Shown piece by piece: positions 6,634 through 12,981 of a stretch of 31,806 bases of DNA; position 1 is the first letter of the stretch; each line of letters begins with the position of its first letter. A program made the translations under genes and the position numbers. The notes under the pieces are model-generated. The model made no database searches. It worked only from the letters and a program-made list of their open reading frames with translations, and was not told the origin of the DNA. The stretch is taken from positions 1 to 31,806 of the forward strand of contig JAZDLX010000132.1 in assembly GCA_043801585.1 (NCBI GenBank). The letters are read 5' to 3'. This DNA is from a bacterium. Its GTDB lineage: Bacteria > Electryoneota > Electryoneia > Electryoneales > Electryoneaceae.

Positions 6634-6751
6634 ATCGGGTCGGTGAGGCTTCTGTCCCCACGTTCCCGTTTGCACGTTTGCCGGGAAAAGTCCGAATCCC
6701 GATCTATCCCTATATTATAAACTTGAACGTTACAATTGGAAAGGATGTGTG

Positions 6752-9049
6752 ATGGCGCGCTCAACCAACCTTGGTTTTCCTCGCTTCGGTATCAGACGGG
6801 AATGGAAGAAGGCCAGTGAAGGATTCTGGTCCGGCAAACTGGGATCGCGTGAGTTGCACGCAACGGCCGACGAACTGATGCAGCGGCATTGGCAATTGCA
6901 GATTGACGCCGGCATTGACGTTATCCCGGTGGGCGATTTCGCCTGGTATGACCATGTGCTCGACACCATCGCCCTCGTCGGGGCCGTTCCGAAACGCTAT
7001 CGGCACGATTCTTCGTCCATGGTGGATATGGACACCTATTTCGCGATGGCGCGTGGCCGCCAGGATGGCGAGGTGGACGTCACCGCGATGGAAATGACCA
7101 AATGGTTCGACACCAACTACCATTATATCGTCCCCGAATTCGAGAAAGGGATGCAATTTCATCTGGCCAGCGAACGACCTTTTGAAACGATTGAGAAAGC
7201 AAGGAACGCGGGAGTACATGCTCCGCGTCCGGTTCTCGTCGGGCCGGTGTCTTTCCTGCTGCTCGGAAAGGTGACGGAGCAGGGGATTGAAGTCGAGGAT
7301 TTCGTCAAATCCCTTGCCGAGGTATACAGTGAGGTTCTCGGCCGTTTTGCCGACCTGGGAATCGATTGGGTGCAGATGGATGAGCCGGTACTGGCACTCG
7401 ATCTGGACGACAAGGGAAAGGCGATCTTCGAGGCTGTCTTCGCGATCCTGAAGAACCTGGAAAAACGGCCCAAGATTTTGATTAACACTTACTTCGGACC
7501 CATAGAACACAACCTCTCCCTGGCTCTCGGTCTTGGTGAAGGGTTGCATGTCGATCTCGTTCGGGCGCCGGATCAGCTTGAGGCTGTTCTCGATTTGATC
7601 GGCGAGGATCAGGTGCTCTCGGTGGGAGTCGTCGATGGACGAAATGTCTGGCGGACGGATCTCGACAAGGCCCTGGTTCTCGTCCGCAAGGCGGTGGCCG
7701 CGCTTGGTTCGGAAAGGGTTGAGATTTCGCCATCCTGTTCGCTGCTTCACAGCCCGATCGATCTCACCGAAGAGACAAAGCTTGATCCGCGAATCCGCGA
7801 ATGGCTGGCGTTTGGTGTTCAGAAATTGAATGAGATTGTAGCTCTCGCCCACGCCGTGAATGATGGAGAGGAGACGGTCAGCGATTTCTTTGCCTCATCA
7901 CGTGAATCGATCCAGCGAAGGCGCACCAGCCCACTTGTAACCAACGCCGACGTGCAGAAACGGTTGCATTCCATCGGCGAGAAGATGACTCATCGCCAAA
8001 GCCCCTACGAGGTTCGGATTGAGGCCCAGCGCAACAAACTGCATCTTCCCACTTTTCCAACGACGACGATTGGCAGTTTCCCGCAGACCAGGGAAGTGCG
8101 GCAGCTTCGGGCTCGTCTGAAGAAAGGGGAACTCTCCCAGCAGCAATACGAAAAGGAACTCGAGAAGGAAATCCTTGAAACGTTGAAACTGCAGGAAGAT
8201 ATGGACGTGGATGTTCTCGTCCACGGTGAATACGAGCGGAACGACATGGTCGAATATTTCGGTGAGCAGCTCGAAGGCTACGTGTTCACACAGAACGGAT
8301 GGGTTCAGTCCTACGGCAGCCGTGGGGTTAAACCGCCGATCATCTTTGGAGACATTTTCCGTAAAGGGCCGATGACGGTTCGTTGGTCAAAATTTGCGAA
8401 GGAGCACACCAAACGGCCGTTGAAGGGGATGCTGACCGGCCCCGTCACCATGCTGCAATGGTCTTTCGTGCGTGACGATCAGCCCCGCCCTGTCACCTGC
8501 GAGCAGATCGCCCTCGCTATCCGTGACGAGGTCGTCGATCTGGAGAAAGCGGGGATCGACATGATCCAGATCGACGAGCCTGCGATCCGGGAGGGACTTC
8601 CCCTTCGCCGGGTTGAATGGCCCATTTACCTCGATTGGGCGGTACGCTGTTTTCGTCTTACATCCAGCGGTGTCTCCGACGAGACCCAGATCCACACTCA
8701 TATGTGCTACAGCGAATTCAATAACATGATGGATTCGATTGCGGCGATGGATGCGGATGTAATCAGTATCGAGGCGAGTCGTTCGAAGATGGAGCTTCTC
8801 GACAGTTTCGAGGATTTCGTTTACCCCAACGATATCGGTCCCGGTGTCTGGGATATACACAGCCCCAGGGTCCCCTCGAAGGAGGAGATGGTGAACCTGC
8901 TGCGAGTGGCGATGAAACATGTTCCGAGGGAACGTCTCTGGGTCAATCCGGATTGCGGGTTGAAAACACGGCGCTGGGAGGAGACGAAAGCGAGCCTCCA
9001 GAATATGGTCGCTGCCGCGAAGGAGCTTCGCAAAGAGCTCGTGGATTAA
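6752..9049 (+). CDS. metE: Cobalamin-independent methionine synthase
   Basis: LGFPRFG, YDHVLD, EMTKWFDTNYHY, PTTTIGSFPQT, HGEYERNDMVEYF, GWVQSYGSR. Zn ligands intact in HTHMCYSEF and NPDCGLKTR. ATG 6752 follows AAGGA. Confidence 0.98.
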   Translation: MARSTNLGFPRFGIRREWKKASEGFWSGKLGSRELHATADELMQRHWQLQIDAGIDVIPVGDFAWYDHVLDTIALVGAVPKRYRHDSSSMVDMDTYFAMARGRQDGEVDVTAMEMTKWFDTNYHYIVPEFEKGMQFHLASERPFETIEKARNAGVHAPRPVLVGPVSFLLLGKVTEQGIEVEDFVKSLAEVYSEVLGRFADLGIDWVQMDEPVLALDLDDKGKAIFEAVFAILKNLEKRPKILINTYFGPIEHNLSLALGLGEGLHVDLVRAPDQLEAVLDLIGEDQVLSVGVVDGRNVWRTDLDKALVLVRKAVAALGSERVEISPSCSLLHSPIDLTEETKLDPRIREWLAFGVQKLNEIVALAHAVNDGEETVSDFFASSRESIQRRRTSPLVTNADVQKRLHSIGEKMTHRQSPYEVRIEAQRNKLHLPTFPTTTIGSFPQTREVRQLRARLKKGELSQQQYEKELEKEILETLKLQEDMDVDVLVHGEYERNDMVEYFGEQLEGYVFTQNGWVQSYGSRGVKPPIIFGDIFRKGPMTVRWSKFAKEHTKRPLKGMLTGPVTMLQWSFVRDDQPRPVTCEQIALAIRDEVVDLEKAGIDMIQIDEPAIREGLPLRRVEWPIYLDWAVRCFRLTSSGVSDETQIHTHMCYSEFNNMMDSIAAMDADVISIEASRSKMELLDSFEDFVYPNDIGPGVWDIHSPRVPSKEEMVNLLRVAMKHVPRERLWVNPDCGLKTRRWEETKASLQNMVAAAKELRKELVD

Positions 9050-9070
9050 ACCTTCATCGACGGTGCATTT

Positions 9071-9099
9071 CACAGGCTGCGGTACTCCCGCAGCCTGTG
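9071..9099 (+). terminator. Strong hairpin downstream of metE (possible terminator, weak U tract)
   Basis: Perfect 12-bp stem CACAGGCTGCGG / CCGCAGCCTGTG with a TACTC loop. No clear poly-U follows on either strand. Confidence 0.5.
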
Positions 9100-9260
9100 T
9101 GATGATAGGCCGGGAACGGTGTGCTTTCGGGTCGCGGTGGCCCTGGGCGATCCTACTGTGGTGAAGCATCGCTTGTGTACGTTGGGAATGTCCCAAATAC
9201 ACCTTGAGATGCTGAACCCATCTACACCGTGTGAGAGCCGCCTTGCAACATCCACACATC
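9096..9260 (+). ncRNA. Candidate structured RNA (leader of the mobA-like operon or a standalone ncRNA); family unassigned
   Basis: Nested helices: ACGGTGT 9116-22/ACACCGT 9224-30; GGGT 9129-32/ACCC 9216-19; CGCGGTGG 9133-40/CTACTGTG 9153-60 (3 G-U pairs, favouring the + strand); AGCATC 9165-70/GATGCT 9208-13; GTGTA/TACAC; TTGGGA/TCCCAA. Confidence 0.35.
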
Positions 9261-9278
9261 AGAGATAGCTTTTCCGCC

Positions 9279-9881
9279 ATGACGAATGTCACACCCTATC
9301 TGATCGCCGGCGGCTATAGCCGCCGTATGGGCGAGGATAAACGGTGGTTGTCGCTCACGGGTGAGCCGCTGTTGATGCGCTCTTTGCGTTTACTTCGAGA
9401 AACGACCGGAGTCGATGCAACGGTTGTTGCGGACGACTTGGATCACCGTCTCCCGGAAGAAATCCGCGTGATTCACGACGCCTCGCCCGGGAAGGGTCCC
9501 CTCGGCGGAATCGTGGCTGCCCTGGAGGATGCGCAAACGAGATGGATAATGGTATTGAGTGTGGACCTGCCGTTGCTTGCTGAGAAAGATCTGCTCGCTC
9601 TCCTTATGTTGACGGAAGAAGAGAATCTACCGCCGGTGGTCACACTATCGGTGGGAGCAGAGATCGAACCACTCGCCGCGCTGTACGAAGTAGGAAGCAG
9701 GGAGTTCTGGAAAGATCGCCTGCAGCGAAATCTGCTGGCGCTTCACAAGGGCATCCGTGAACTTGGCTGGAAGGCGGTTGAGCCCCCATCTGGAGTCGAT
9801 TCACTGCTCAACGTGAATCATCCTGATGAGTGGCTGAAGGTCACTGGGCTGCGTGGGAGGAGAGATGACGGGCAACGTTGA
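9279..9881 (+). CDS. mobA: Molybdenum cofactor guanylyltransferase (MobA-like, NTP_transf_3)
   Basis: IAGGYSRRMGEDK, GPLGGI, SVDLP, EPLAALY and NVNHPDE motifs of MobA. ATG 9279 chosen because the motif begins 7 codons later. Confidence 0.85.
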   Translation: MTNVTPYLIAGGYSRRMGEDKRWLSLTGEPLLMRSLRLLRETTGVDATVVADDLDHRLPEEIRVIHDASPGKGPLGGIVAALEDAQTRWIMVLSVDLPLLAEKDLLALLMLTEEENLPPVVTLSVGAEIEPLAALYEVGSREFWKDRLQRNLLALHKGIRELGWKAVEPPSGVDSLLNVNHPDEWLKVTGLRGRRDDGQR

Positions 9882-10503
9882 TTTTGGGAAACAACCTGGT
9901 TCGGCAGCGAGCTGGAAACTTCCCCGTGCCTGGCGGGAGGCGGCCGTGTTCGGCGCTCTCTGGGGAGCGGTGGAGGTTACCGTCGGAACGTTTCTGCACG
10001 CGACACGGGTGCCCCTTGCCGGGGTGTTTCTTTCCGCGACGGGCGTTGCATTGCTCATCGCCGGATCGATGATTCTTCCCAGTCGCGGTTTTCCCATCCG
10101 AACGGCGCTCGTTTGTGCGGCGATCCGTGCCCTGTCGCCGCAAGGGCTGATGCCCGGTCCCATGATTGCCATCGTCTGGCAGGGTGTGTTGGTGGCGGTC
10201 CTGTTGGTACTGCTCCGCCATCCGCTCGTTGCGGGGTTGGTCGCCGGTTTTATCGCCACGGTCTCCACTCAGGTCCAGGCGTTTGTCGTCAAACTGATTT
10301 TTTTTGGGGCGGATCTCTGGGAACTCTACACACGGCTGCTTGAACGAGCGGAGCACTTCTTCGGGTTGTCACCCGGTCAGGGGTGGTTGGCGATCGTCAT
10401 TTATCTGTTGATCATCGGTGCTGTGGGGATCGCCGGAGGCTATCTGGGGTGGCGGATCGGCAGCGAAGCGCTGCGTCTGCGCGAGGAGGGCGACCGTGGC
10501 TGA
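9865..10503 (+). CDS. Integral membrane protein, ECF S-component-like
   Basis: About 212 aa with about 6 TM helices. AAVFGALWGAVEVTVGTFLH...P..G N-terminus resembles ECF substrate-binding components. GGGAGG RBS before ATG 9865. Overlaps the mobA stop. Confidence 0.6.
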   Translation: MTGNVDFGKQPGSAASWKLPRAWREAAVFGALWGAVEVTVGTFLHATRVPLAGVFLSATGVALLIAGSMILPSRGFPIRTALVCAAIRALSPQGLMPGPMIAIVWQGVLVAVLLVLLRHPLVAGLVAGFIATVSTQVQAFVVKLIFFGADLWELYTRLLERAEHFFGLSPGQGWLAIVIYLLIIGAVGIAGGYLGWRIGSEALRLREEGDRG

Positions 10504-11554
10504 ACCGAGACGGATGACACGAGTCGCCGCAGCTCTTGCCGCTGGCGCCCTGGTCCTGACTGGACGACCCCAGGCGGTGGTTGCAGGATTCGCCGGTGCG
10601 TTGATCTGGGTTCTCGCTGTGGATCGGACGATTCTGCGTCGCATCGGACGCCCGAAATTTTGGGTCTTCAGCATCTCGATCACACTGCTTGCCGGAATGT
10701 TTCTCGGCGACGACCCTGCACAGTGGATGGGAATTCCGATTTCCCGGGCGGGATTCACCGCTGGTTTGTTGATGAACCTGCGGGCATTCACGTTGATCAC
10801 GGCAGGTGTGCTGCTCGCGAAAGGTGTCTCCCGCGAGGGTTTTCTCGGGGCAACGGGAAGAATGGGAGCCGCTCACCTCGACGCCGCATTCCGTCAGGCG
10901 ATGGGAACCCTCCCGGCTGTTAACAGGGAGTGGCGTGAGACGCTCAAGAAAACGCGCTCACCGATCACGGCTTTGGCGCGTTTGCTGCTCCGCATGGCTG
11001 AAATGGCGGGGGAGGCATCGCTGGGCGAGGCGTTCGCGGTGACGGGTGCACACGGGATGGGTAAAACCGAGTGGCTGAAGGAGCTGGGGGACCGAGCCGA
11101 GAGGATGGGGTGGGTCGTTGGGGGCATCCGGCAGGAGCGGGTTCTTGAGGGGGAAATGGCTGTCGGGTATCGTGTGGTCCGCTGGAAAAATGGAGACGGG
11201 ATTCTCCTCGCAAGAGGAGAGAGTGGCAAAGGATTTCTCTTTGACGAAGCGGCGTTCCTGAAAGCAGCGGAATGGCTGGCTGAGGATTCGCGGACGTGCG
11301 ATATGCTTCTGGTTGATGAATTGGGTTTGCTCGAAGCCCAGGGGCATGGCCACGCACCGGCGTTGGCGGGGGCGCTGGCGGGAAGTAGCCCACCCCTGCT
11401 GGTTGTTTCCATTCGGAAGGATAAACGTACCGAATTAACCGACCGTTTTGCCTTAAGGGATGAACGAATCCTCGATCTGGATTCGGAAAGTCCCGCCAGG
11501 GAAGAATTTCTGAAAAGGATACTGAAGGCTCTCGCAGATCGTAAAAGCCGATAA
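10496..11554 (+). CDS. Membrane protein: truncated EcfT/CbiQ-like N-terminus fused to a THEP1/DUF2478-like P-loop NTPase
   Basis: GTG 10496 with GAGGAGG RBS overlaps the upstream stop. TM region includes GFTAGLLMNLRAF...AMGTLPAVNRE. NTPase has Walker A VTGAHGMGKT, then VGGI..E, and Walker B LLVDELGLLE..G.G. Confidence 0.7.
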   Translation: MAEPRRMTRVAAALAAGALVLTGRPQAVVAGFAGALIWVLAVDRTILRRIGRPKFWVFSISITLLAGMFLGDDPAQWMGIPISRAGFTAGLLMNLRAFTLITAGVLLAKGVSREGFLGATGRMGAAHLDAAFRQAMGTLPAVNREWRETLKKTRSPITALARLLLRMAEMAGEASLGEAFAVTGAHGMGKTEWLKELGDRAERMGWVVGGIRQERVLEGEMAVGYRVVRWKNGDGILLARGESGKGFLFDEAAFLKAAEWLAEDSRTCDMLLVDELGLLEAQGHGHAPALAGALAGSSPPLLVVSIRKDKRTELTDRFALRDERILDLDSESPAREEFLKRILKALADRKSR

Positions 11555-11578
11555 AAAAAAGCCCCGAATGGGGCTTTT
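11553..11578. terminator. Bidirectional rho-independent terminator
   Basis: AAAAAAAAGCCCC-GAAT-GGGGCTTTT between convergent genes, with U tracts on both strands. Confidence 0.85.
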
Positions 11579-11598: not shown

Positions 11599-12882
11599 CT
11601 ACAGTTTCCCGACAATGGTGATGTAGATGAATTGCCCCATCTTTTTGTCCGGTTGGCCGATGAAGGAGGCGTACTTTTCGGACGGGAGGAAAACGCTGTA
11701 CCCCACCTGAAATTCAAATCCCCGAGCGAGGACTGCAATAAGGCGGGTGTCGATTTCCTGTGCGACAGGTGAGAAACCGATACCGTCAACAAAGGCGTTT
11801 TCCATGAAGGCGAAATTGTGGCCTGTGAGTTCGATACCGTACCGGCTTCCCGGTTGAAAACTGAATCGGAGGTAGGAATCGATCAGGCCCTGGCGTTCGA
11901 AGAAGCTGGTTTCGTCAACGAAATAATCAATGTACCCTTTGAAGATGTGGCGGGAACCGAAGGGGGAATAGAAGACATGATCCGTGTAGCTGCTGTCATC
12001 TTCATAGAACTTGTTTCCGGAAGTGACGTCGGCTCCTAAACCAAATTTCGGACGAATCTTTGCTGATAAGGAATAGGATAGGTCGACGGACACAAGCCAT
12101 GAGCTCAGATCACGGTCGTTGACAGTGCCGAGCTGATATGCACCGTCGCCCTCAAACGCGAAGCGGTTTGATTTATAGATGCTGGAGACAGCGGCGGTGG
12201 TTATCACGTTATTCTTTTTTATGCCGTTCAACAACCGTTCATCAAGATCGATCATCACCAATGGCTGGATCAGGTCCTTCGCCATGGATCCTGTAAACGC
12301 GGTCAGATGGCGATCGCCCTTGCGAACGGGTGATACCAGGTCATAGAGGGGTAGAGGATCACCCTCGAGAAAACTTCCCTCCGCGATCTTCGAGTAAAAG
12401 ACGTTCCACCATCCTGATTCGGTTTTCAATTCGACAAGGACGCCGTCATAGGCACTCGGTCCATAATTCTGCCAGTCGGATTGACCCATGATACGGTTTC
12501 GGCCATAGGCTGCTTCGAAGCGGCCGAATCGCAGAGACAGGGGAGAACCGAGGGCGTTGTCCAACTTGACATATGCTTCCTGGAAACTGAGTGTCGCTGA
12601 GGAAGCAGTTAGCGAAGGGGTGGTCCCCAGGTATCGCGTTTCCTTGATTTTGAATCGAAGCGTCACATTCCGGGAAGCGACAAAGGTTGCTCCCAAGTGT
12701 GTCCGAAGAGCGCTGAATTCGTTGAAACCGGTATCCGGATTGAAATCTTTGTCTACGATTTCGGAACGGTACCTGGTTTCCGCATCCAGGCTGAACCGTT
12801 TGGTGAGACGCATCTCGGCGGACGCACGGGGCGCTGCCATCAGGGATATCAGCAGCAGAACCGCGAGGTAACGAAATCGCAT
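11599..12882 (-). CDS. Alginate export family (AlgE-like) outer-membrane beta-barrel
   Basis: Signal peptide MRFRYLAVLLLISLMAAPRASA. Motifs TRYRSE, LRTHLG, SFQEAYV, LRFGRFEAAYG..RIMG..DW, YDGV, SPFGSRHIFKGYIDYF and QEID. GGGAGG RBS before ATG 12882. Confidence 0.75.
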   Translation of the reverse strand: MRFRYLAVLLLISLMAAPRASAEMRLTKRFSLDAETRYRSEIVDKDFNPDTGFNEFSALRTHLGATFVASRNVTLRFKIKETRYLGTTPSLTASSATLSFQEAYVKLDNALGSPLSLRFGRFEAAYGRNRIMGQSDWQNYGPSAYDGVLVELKTESGWWNVFYSKIAEGSFLEGDPLPLYDLVSPVRKGDRHLTAFTGSMAKDLIQPLVMIDLDERLLNGIKKNNVITTAAVSSIYKSNRFAFEGDGAYQLGTVNDRDLSSWLVSVDLSYSLSAKIRPKFGLGADVTSGNKFYEDDSSYTDHVFYSPFGSRHIFKGYIDYFVDETSFFERQGLIDSYLRFSFQPGSRYGIELTGHNFAFMENAFVDGIGFSPVAQEIDTRLIAVLARGFEFQVGYSVFLPSEKYASFIGQPDKKMGQFIYITIVGKL

Positions 12883-12981
12883 GCACACCTCCCGTGAAGT
12901 GTCGCGCATTCAGGGACACCGCCTTGACAGGTTACATTGAACCAGACACGTCCGGATACCCCGAAAGCATGAATCCTGATT

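Follow-up and report, generated by a model that had tools for sequence, protein, structure and literature searches.

The window analysed here is a 31,806 nt stretch, positions 1–31,806 (forward strand) of contig JAZDLX010000132.1 in GCA_043801585.1 (Electryoneaceae). It contains an operon of three overlapping genes, which encode a MobA-family nucleotidyltransferase (gene 1), a membrane protein predicted to have the S-component fold of energy-coupling factor (ECF) transporters (gene 2), and a protein in which a predicted EcfT-like domain is joined to a THEP1-type P-loop NTPase (gene 3). The operon and its neighbours are as follows.

9279–9881, + strand: gene 1, mobA, MobA-family nucleotidyltransferase of the molybdenum cofactor (Moco) guanylyltransferase type, 200 aa (PF12804)
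9865–10503, + strand: gene 2, membrane protein with a predicted S-component fold, predicted substrate-binding subunit, 212 aa (fold model)
10496–11029, + strand: gene 3, residues 1–178, predicted EcfT-like scaffold domain with membrane helices and two coupling-type helices (fold model, hhalign)
11030–11554, + strand: gene 3, residues about 180–352, THEP1-type P-loop NTPase domain (PF03266, DUF2478)
11557–11578, + strand: intrinsic terminator with a 9-bp stem, end of the operon (hairpin and T run)
11599–12909, − strand: convergent gene for an outer-membrane barrel (porin) of the Alginate_exp family (PF13372, E = 2.3e-17)
6749–9049: metE, upstream of mobA

A reading made from the sequence alone (the sequence-only reading) had described three overlapping genes closed by one terminator, and this layout was confirmed. 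Gene 2 shares 17 nt with gene 1 and starts at an ATG at 9865 that is closely preceded by GGAGGAG, while the GTG start of gene 3 at 10496 is preceded by GAGGAGGG and overlaps gene 2 by 8 nt, with an ATG at 10514 as an alternative start. In the window, mobA is translationally coupled to the genes for the S protein and the T-NTPase protein. As the terminator has A and T runs on its two flanks, it can also serve the convergent porin gene, beyond which lies nadE.

Gene 1 matched PF12804 (E = 1.5e-25), and its top five matches in NCBIfam were MobA equivalog models, in agreement with the MobA-family assignment in the sequence-only reading. All five scores were under the respective cut-offs (74.9 bits against 151.85 for TIGR02665). 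The closest homologues in related genomes are 42–46% identical and share their contigs with moaC and moeA, lying either between the two or next to them (genomes G049, G046, G038, G003 and G033). Gene 1 groups with these moaC-mobA-moeA cluster genes as an orthologue of the mobA of Moco operons, and looks like the ordinary mobA of its phylum. As its best homologues lie between moaC and moeA, we conclude that mobA has been retained in a genome where the synthesis genes were not found, and that it now overlaps the genes of a putative transporter.

Gene 2 matched no Pfam or NCBIfam family. In the ESM Atlas it lies near clusters in which 23–33% of members carry Trep_Strep (PF09605), which we take to be an ECF S-component family. 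A structural model based on 27 homologues (pLDDT 91.6) has the six-helix membrane fold of S-components, and its top and sole notable Foldseek match in the PDB was an ECF S-component, 5edl (E = 3.8e-3). VIA, a fold search that is independent of Foldseek, aligned 165 residues of the model to 5edl_A (Z 13.8, rmsd 3.4), and 10 of its top 11 rows were ECF S-components (FolT, RibU, BioY, PanT, NikM and others). Helix 1 includes A27xxxA31xxxA35, the AxxxA pattern used for docking to EcfT, with A27, A31 and A35 found in 25, 26 and 24 of the 27 homologues, respectively. In the available text of one study, this motif is the contact with EcfT and is absent from receptors, which also use S-component folds (PMC11109136). 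The S-component fold of gene 2, which the sequence-only reading had recognised from the shape of the protein, is therefore supported by the model and by both fold searches.

The C-terminal half of gene 3 matched NTPase_1 (PF03266; 56.6 bits against a cut-off of 23.9) and DUF2478 (28 bits), and Pfam detected no ABC_tran in gene 3, which also has no ABC signature. The NCBIfam model PRK13695 scored 52.3 bits, below its equivalog cut-off of 156. The best solved relatives by sequence in the PDB were THEP1 (1ye8; E = 2.3e-13 with the family profile) and a human NTPase (2i3b), and a PDB sequence search with a profile of the fusion proteins matched only P-loop proteins, through the NTPase part, with no match to either the S or the T part. 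Walker A (GxxGxGKT) and Walker B (DE) are invariant in a 5-sequence alignment. These matches support a THEP1-type, non-ABC NTPase, as had been proposed, with NTP hydrolysis as a putative activity. The domain shares with THEP1/NTPCR proteins (PF03266; Aquifex aq_1292, 1ye8, and human 2i3b) a P-loop fold of approximately 170 residues with Walker A and B motifs, but it is fused to a membrane scaffold whereas the characterised members are soluble. The presence of a MobA-type protein and a P-loop protein in one operon also recalls MobA and its P-loop adaptor MobB. Weak MobB matches were found in the NTPase domain of 43 of 92 family members, and weak matches to MobB structures were seen in the PDB (E = 0.7–2). 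However, the gene 3 NTPase is of the THEP1 type, not MobB, and is membrane-tethered. THEP1 shows ATPase and GTPase activity according to the available text of its description (PMC1079890).

For the N-terminal half of gene 3, CbiQ (PF02361) scored 15.2–15.5 bits, under the gathering cut-off of 25. In the 92 family members, Pfam found CbiQ in 11 (E ≤ 0.1; best E = 8.7e-8) and NTPase_1 in 88. A model of residues 1–178 built from these 92 homologues (pLDDT 89.8) matched EcfT or CbiQ chains in all of its top 10 Foldseek hits (TMq 0.48–0.60). VIA aligned 176 of the 178 residues to 5d3m_D (Z 8.7) and 171 to 5x41_Q (Z 8.5), and all near-full-length matches were EcfT or CbiQ, the next row having Z 6.4 over 60 residues. 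When the domain was compared by hhalign with a profile of 20 canonical EcfT proteins from the genomes of relatives, residues 19–176 aligned to EcfT positions 40–231 (93.5% probability, E = 2.3e-7). An EcfT-like scaffold fold is thus supported by modelling and by profile comparison.

The 20 canonical EcfT proteins have two Arg-Gly motifs, R191-G192 and R231-G232, that are invariant or nearly so, and gene 3 has neither in full. The T-like part stops exactly at the second motif position and lacks both the RG and the final transmembrane helix. At the first position, Arg is present in 51 and Lys in 14 of the 92 family members, and the window protein has no Gly after it. G90 and R96 are invariant (92/92). 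The EcfT/CbiQ likeness claimed in the sequence-only reading was upheld, but its placement of the break ahead of the coupling motifs was not, as the domain retains the coupling helices and reaches the second Arg-Gly position.

At eleven loci in other lineages (L002–L012), genes 2 and 3 correspond to one protein of 550–586 aa. An exhaustive search with one fusion query returned 902 representative clusters at E ≤ 1e-3, and 398 at 1e-10. The best 150 representatives were mostly S-T-NTPase fusions, with about twenty T-NTPase proteins (340–376 aa) and a few S-T proteins (411–433 aa). A third layout, found in a Bacteroidota order, consists of an S-T fusion and a separate NTPase gene that is either adjacent or elsewhere in the genome. 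Members of the fusion family are annotated with no name beyond 'NTPase' or 'hypothetical', and no description of an EcfT-THEP1 fusion was found in the literature searched, which did not extend to subscription journals.

Canonical ECF transporters use two ABC ATPases, and the operon encodes none (no ABC_tran). The sequence-only reading had suggested that the fused NTPase takes the place of EcfAA', and in line with this a scan of flanking ORFs detected no ABC_tran at any of 16 loci with T-like proteins (L001–L003, L005, L007, L011, L012, L113, L115, L146–L150, L155 and L156), a scan that ATPases encoded elsewhere in these genomes lie outside. Distant homologues of the S protein belong to ordinary ECF clusters that also encode a double-ABC protein and a short CbiQ (L013, L034 and L151–L153). 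In L151 this short CbiQ has 210 aa and matches the T-like domain of the window as well as Pfam CbiQ, and so links the canonical ECF and T-NTPase forms.

A complex of gene 2 with the T-like domain of gene 3, the interface implied by the sequence-only reading, was predicted with a score of 0.52 compared with 0.00 for the best control; 89% or more of contacts agreed between runs, with a partner pLDDT of 73 or above. Of 157 solved complexes 116 attain that mark, as do 2 of 215 mismatched pairs, but only 18 of the 157, and both of these mismatched pairs, do so with a score of 0.60 or less. This prediction lends weak support to an S–T pair, and as solved ECF complexes exist, its score may reflect likeness to them.

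Taken against group I ECF transporters (YkoE-type, CbiMNQO), the module formed by genes 2 and 3 has a predicted S-component fold with an AxxxA-type motif in helix 1, a predicted EcfT/CbiQ-like scaffold of membrane helices and two coupling-type helices, and adjacent, mutually dedicated S and T genes, with distant S homologues still residing in full EcfAA'+S+CbiQ clusters. It differs in that the window locus lacks EcfA and EcfA', the second Arg-Gly and last membrane helix are gone with the first motif position partly basic only, and a THEP1-type NTPase is fused at the position of the second motif, the parts often forming one polypeptide. The module would work like a group I system, but as it has neither the Arg-Gly motifs nor the ABC ATPases that help to define ECF transporters, we conclude that it is a variant of them and not a member.

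The content of the genome bears on what such a module might carry. In this genome, which is 92% complete and, like all genomes used here, metagenome-assembled, no match was found to MoaC, Mob_synth_C (the C-terminal domain of MoaA), MoaE or MoeA_N, and MoCF_biosynth was found only in CinA. It nevertheless encodes three enzymes of the xanthine-dehydrogenase family (MoCoBD_1) and one Psr-like enzyme of the bis-molybdopterin guanine dinucleotide type with molybdopterin, Fe4S4 and dinucleotide-binding domains, together with the finishing proteins YqeC, XdhC and the product of a second, MocA-like NTP_transf_3 gene. The YqeC, MocA-like NTP_transf_3 and XdhC genes are carried with that for an unassigned 272-aa protein in a xanthine-dehydrogenase-type operon elsewhere in the genome (G000:C16; L189:849–7569).

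We examined the co-occurrence of the module with Moco genes in 79 genomes of the window's own phylum and in 151 genomes, evenly drawn, of a Bacteroidota order. In the own phylum, the S+T module was found in 10/21 genomes that have MoCoBD_1 but neither MoaC nor MoeA_N, and 19/21 have some part of the module. Where MoCoBD_1 is missing as well, both figures fall to 1/13, and in genomes with MoaC or MoeA_N they are 1/45 and 5/45, respectively. The carriers in this phylum belong to three families and at least eight genera. In the Bacteroidota order, module matches were found in 9/9 genomes with MoCoBD_1 and without MoaC (seven with S/T parts), in 24/41 with both, in 8/31 with MoaC alone and in 7/70 with neither. 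Based on these counts, the module tracks molybdoenzymes of the xanthine-dehydrogenase family in two phyla, and in the Bacteroidota sample it is always present in enzyme-bearing genomes that lack MoaC.

Neighbouring genes point to the same cofactor. XdhC is an immediate neighbour of the module in L113 and L148, and in L146 it is found approximately 1.8 kb downstream. In another genus (G007, L186), mobA follows the T-NTPase gene in a different gene order and is itself followed by a co-directional gene of the Alginate_exp family. That family also adjoins the module in a relative from the same genus as the window (L001), and the barrel encoded at 11599–12909 in the window is tentatively a candidate for the outer-membrane entry route. 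The candidate idea that mobA is a constant neighbour of the module was rejected, as blastp found a MobA-like ORF at one of the first 74 loci (L025), the link in G007 being found later. Among six module carriers, a full-length PF00384 enzyme is encoded by all four that have MobA, and the two that lack MobA give partial matches only, a pattern that can explain a same-genus relative that carries the module without mobA.

From the predicted folds and these genomic patterns, we favour, with modest confidence, the interpretation that the operon encodes an ECF-derived importer without ABC ATPases, that its cargo is likely ready-made Moco (Mo-molybdopterin), and that import is coupled to MobA. The S protein would bind Moco at the outer face and topple against the T-like scaffold, by analogy with S-components, which do so. 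The signature Arg motifs of the T scaffold are part of the ECF motor module, and the NTPase would occupy the position of the second of these. There it might power the cycle by binding and hydrolysing NTP, or else take over the labile cofactor and hand it on. The guanine dinucleotide form used by the Psr-like enzyme would then be made by MobA, and the MocA-like protein, YqeC and XdhC, encoded elsewhere, would serve the enzymes of the xanthine-dehydrogenase family. The broader proposition, that bacteria take up ready-made Moco through an ECF-derived transporter in which a single fused THEP1-type NTPase replaces the two ABC ATPases, we put slightly short of an even chance.

Moco is labile, and the textbook view is that each cell makes its own. 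If the interpretation were right, it would explain genomes that have molybdoenzymes and finishing enzymes but no moa/moe pathway, and a widespread class of bacteria would run molybdoenzymes without synthesising the cofactor. Moco would be a shared community resource, like B12, the ECF transport principle could run without ABC ATPases, and the THEP1/NTPCR family would gain its first cellular role. The nearest parallel is Caenorhabditis elegans, which, in the available text of two papers, takes up ready-made Moco from its diet (PMC7849362, PMC9793310). There too the organism obtains the intact cofactor from outside, but the case concerns an animal, and that text names no transporter. Papers on Moco uptake found in the literature searched, outside subscription journals, concerned nematodes only, and none described a bacterial Moco importer.

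Several observations weigh against Moco import by this module. MoaC is present in 30 of 40 locus genomes searched, including all nine Bacteroidota genomes with the triple fusion (G081–G089), and in 32 of the 48 module carriers of the Bacteroidota sample. The former count led us to reject the idea that every carrier is a Moco auxotroph. The presence of MoaC is compatible with salvage beside synthesis, as is common for B12, and gives no support to it. Among the 21 enzyme-bearing genomes of the own phylum in which synthesis genes were not found, two (G035 and G036) have no part of the module and six have the NTPase part only. In relatives, MoaC and MoeA frequently adjoin each other, so that in metagenome-assembled genomes their absences are not independent safeguards against assembly gaps, and related genomes are not independent samples. 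The same-genus relative (L001) has the module with no mobA beside it and no match to the window MobA (P0002) at E ≤ 1e-8. Finally, no part of the window scored at threshold for any Rfam family, the Moco riboswitch included.

The part played by the NTPase is a further difficulty. At other loci, related genes for THEP1-type NTPases come after a complete Peripla_BP_2-FecCD-ABC_tran importer, which already includes an ATPase, Peripla_BP_2 being a neighbour in 36 loci and FecCD in 35, and related NTPases also accompany full EcfAA'+S+CbiQ clusters (L013 and L034). As these NTPases are found with importers that already possess ATPases, or in clusters without a transporter, a THEP1-type NTPase need not be a transport motor and may, as this suggests, handle the cargo instead of, or besides, driving transport. 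We regard a motor role as close to, though under, an even prospect, and a role in receiving or handing off the cofactor as a serious but lesser possibility, with other roles taking up what is left.

The surroundings of these stand-alone NTPases are varied. In Anaerolineae and other groups, the NTPase gene lies directly after a PadR, Peripla_BP_2, FecCD and ABC_tran operon (L018:2526–6516 and about 35 other loci among L014–L074). Fusions of the NTPase to an ABC ATPase were seen in L025 (451 aa) and L045 (754 aa). A MobA-like gene lies two genes upstream of the fusion in L025, and FmdE and DUF364/DUF4213 genes are close by in L038. The clusters at L013:184–8145 and L034:2063–11626 include genes for a radical SAM protein (441 aa), a THEP1-type NTPase, a double-ABC EcfAA', the S homologue, an Oxidored_molyb-like protein (145 aa), Fur and a P-type ATPase, with CbiQ detected by Pfam in L034 only, which additionally has genes for a TorD-type chaperone and a ferredoxin. 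Within the window's phylum, one family has a stand-alone NTPase gene (L170:7291–13996 and L171) beside genes for a carbamoyltransferase, an M20 peptidase, two PALP enzymes and an amidohydrolase. This set is similar to the ygeW-ygeX-ygeY purine cluster, which has a link to selenium-dependent molybdenum hydroxylases.

The best surviving alternative, which we still consider unlikely, is the same ECF-derived importer with another cargo, be it molybdate or tungstate, a pterin precursor, a corrinoid or another vitamin, the molybdenum-related neighbours then reflecting loose co-regulation. It would accommodate the many carriers that keep MoaC, the varied neighbours of the Bacteroidota fusions (HAD hydrolase, GH3 and uncharacterised proteins), the position of distant S homologues after nadC in L152 and L153, and metE, a neighbour both in the window and in L001. 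However, without MoaA, MoaC, MoaE and MoeA, neither molybdate nor metal-free precursors could yield Moco in this genome. The coupling of mobA to the module here, its linkage again in another genus, and the distribution of the module with xanthine-dehydrogenase-family enzymes in two phyla also argue for Moco. The sequence-only reading had offered both a molybdenum cofactor passed to MobA and a corrinoid precursor as substrates, and of these the first fits the neighbourhoods and the presence/absence counts. A corrinoid or B12 cargo was rejected, as neither a cobalamin riboswitch at Rfam thresholds nor B12 genes among the ORFs were found in the window and the adjacency of metE is common only to the same-genus relative.

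An improbable alternative is that the module is not a transporter, and that the S-fold and T-like parts anchor or regulate a cytoplasmic THEP1-type NTPase acting in molybdoenzyme maturation, or that the S-fold part is a sensor. The purine-type clusters in L170 and L171 with a stand-alone NTPase_1 gene and no transporter, the NTPase_1 genes behind importers that already have ATPases, and the weak MobB matches in the family are all consistent with this, as is the use of S-component folds by receptors. On the other hand, the small-xxx-small motif in helix 1 of gene 2 is conserved and, in the available text cited above (PMC11109136), is tied to EcfT docking and absent from receptor-type S folds. 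Homologous S proteins also occur in complete EcfAA'+S+CbiQ clusters (L013, L034 and L151–L153), and genomes that have Moco enzymes but no synthesis need an uptake route and carry the module.

It is very improbable that the S protein is instead energised by the canonical ECF module of the genome, with the T-NTPase as an accessory or competitor, since, although the genome does encode one canonical EcfT and a double-ABC protein, both of which would be available to the S protein, the S and T-NTPase genes overlap by 8 nt, they form a single polypeptide in most relatives, and the complex prediction, weak support as it is, pairs the S protein with the T-like domain. The canonical EcfT (271 aa, 92 bits; G000:C184, L076:4310–5901) is encoded beside truA with no ABC ATPase gene adjacent, and the best EcfA-like match is a 537-aa double-ABC frame (G000:C67:14534–15997) that scores under the equivalog cut-off.

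Some further features were seen at the window locus and at related loci. A search for sigma-70-like promoters on the + strand of the 230-bp metE-mobA spacer (9050–9278) found none, and by eye the 230 bp upstream of mobA contain no obvious repeat; the spacer does contain a GC-rich hairpin at its start (about 9073–9103) that has no T run. TonB-dependent receptors were met twice, once as a gene after the S-like ECF cluster in L153 (6796–8901) and once joined to an S-T-NTPase fusion in a 1222-aa protein (P0039) that may be a gene-call artefact. A conserved protein of 171–180 aa with no Pfam family is encoded divergently from the triple-fusion gene in Bacteroidota (L005:4611–5153, L007:4578–5093, L011:4650–5165 and L012:4132–4653).

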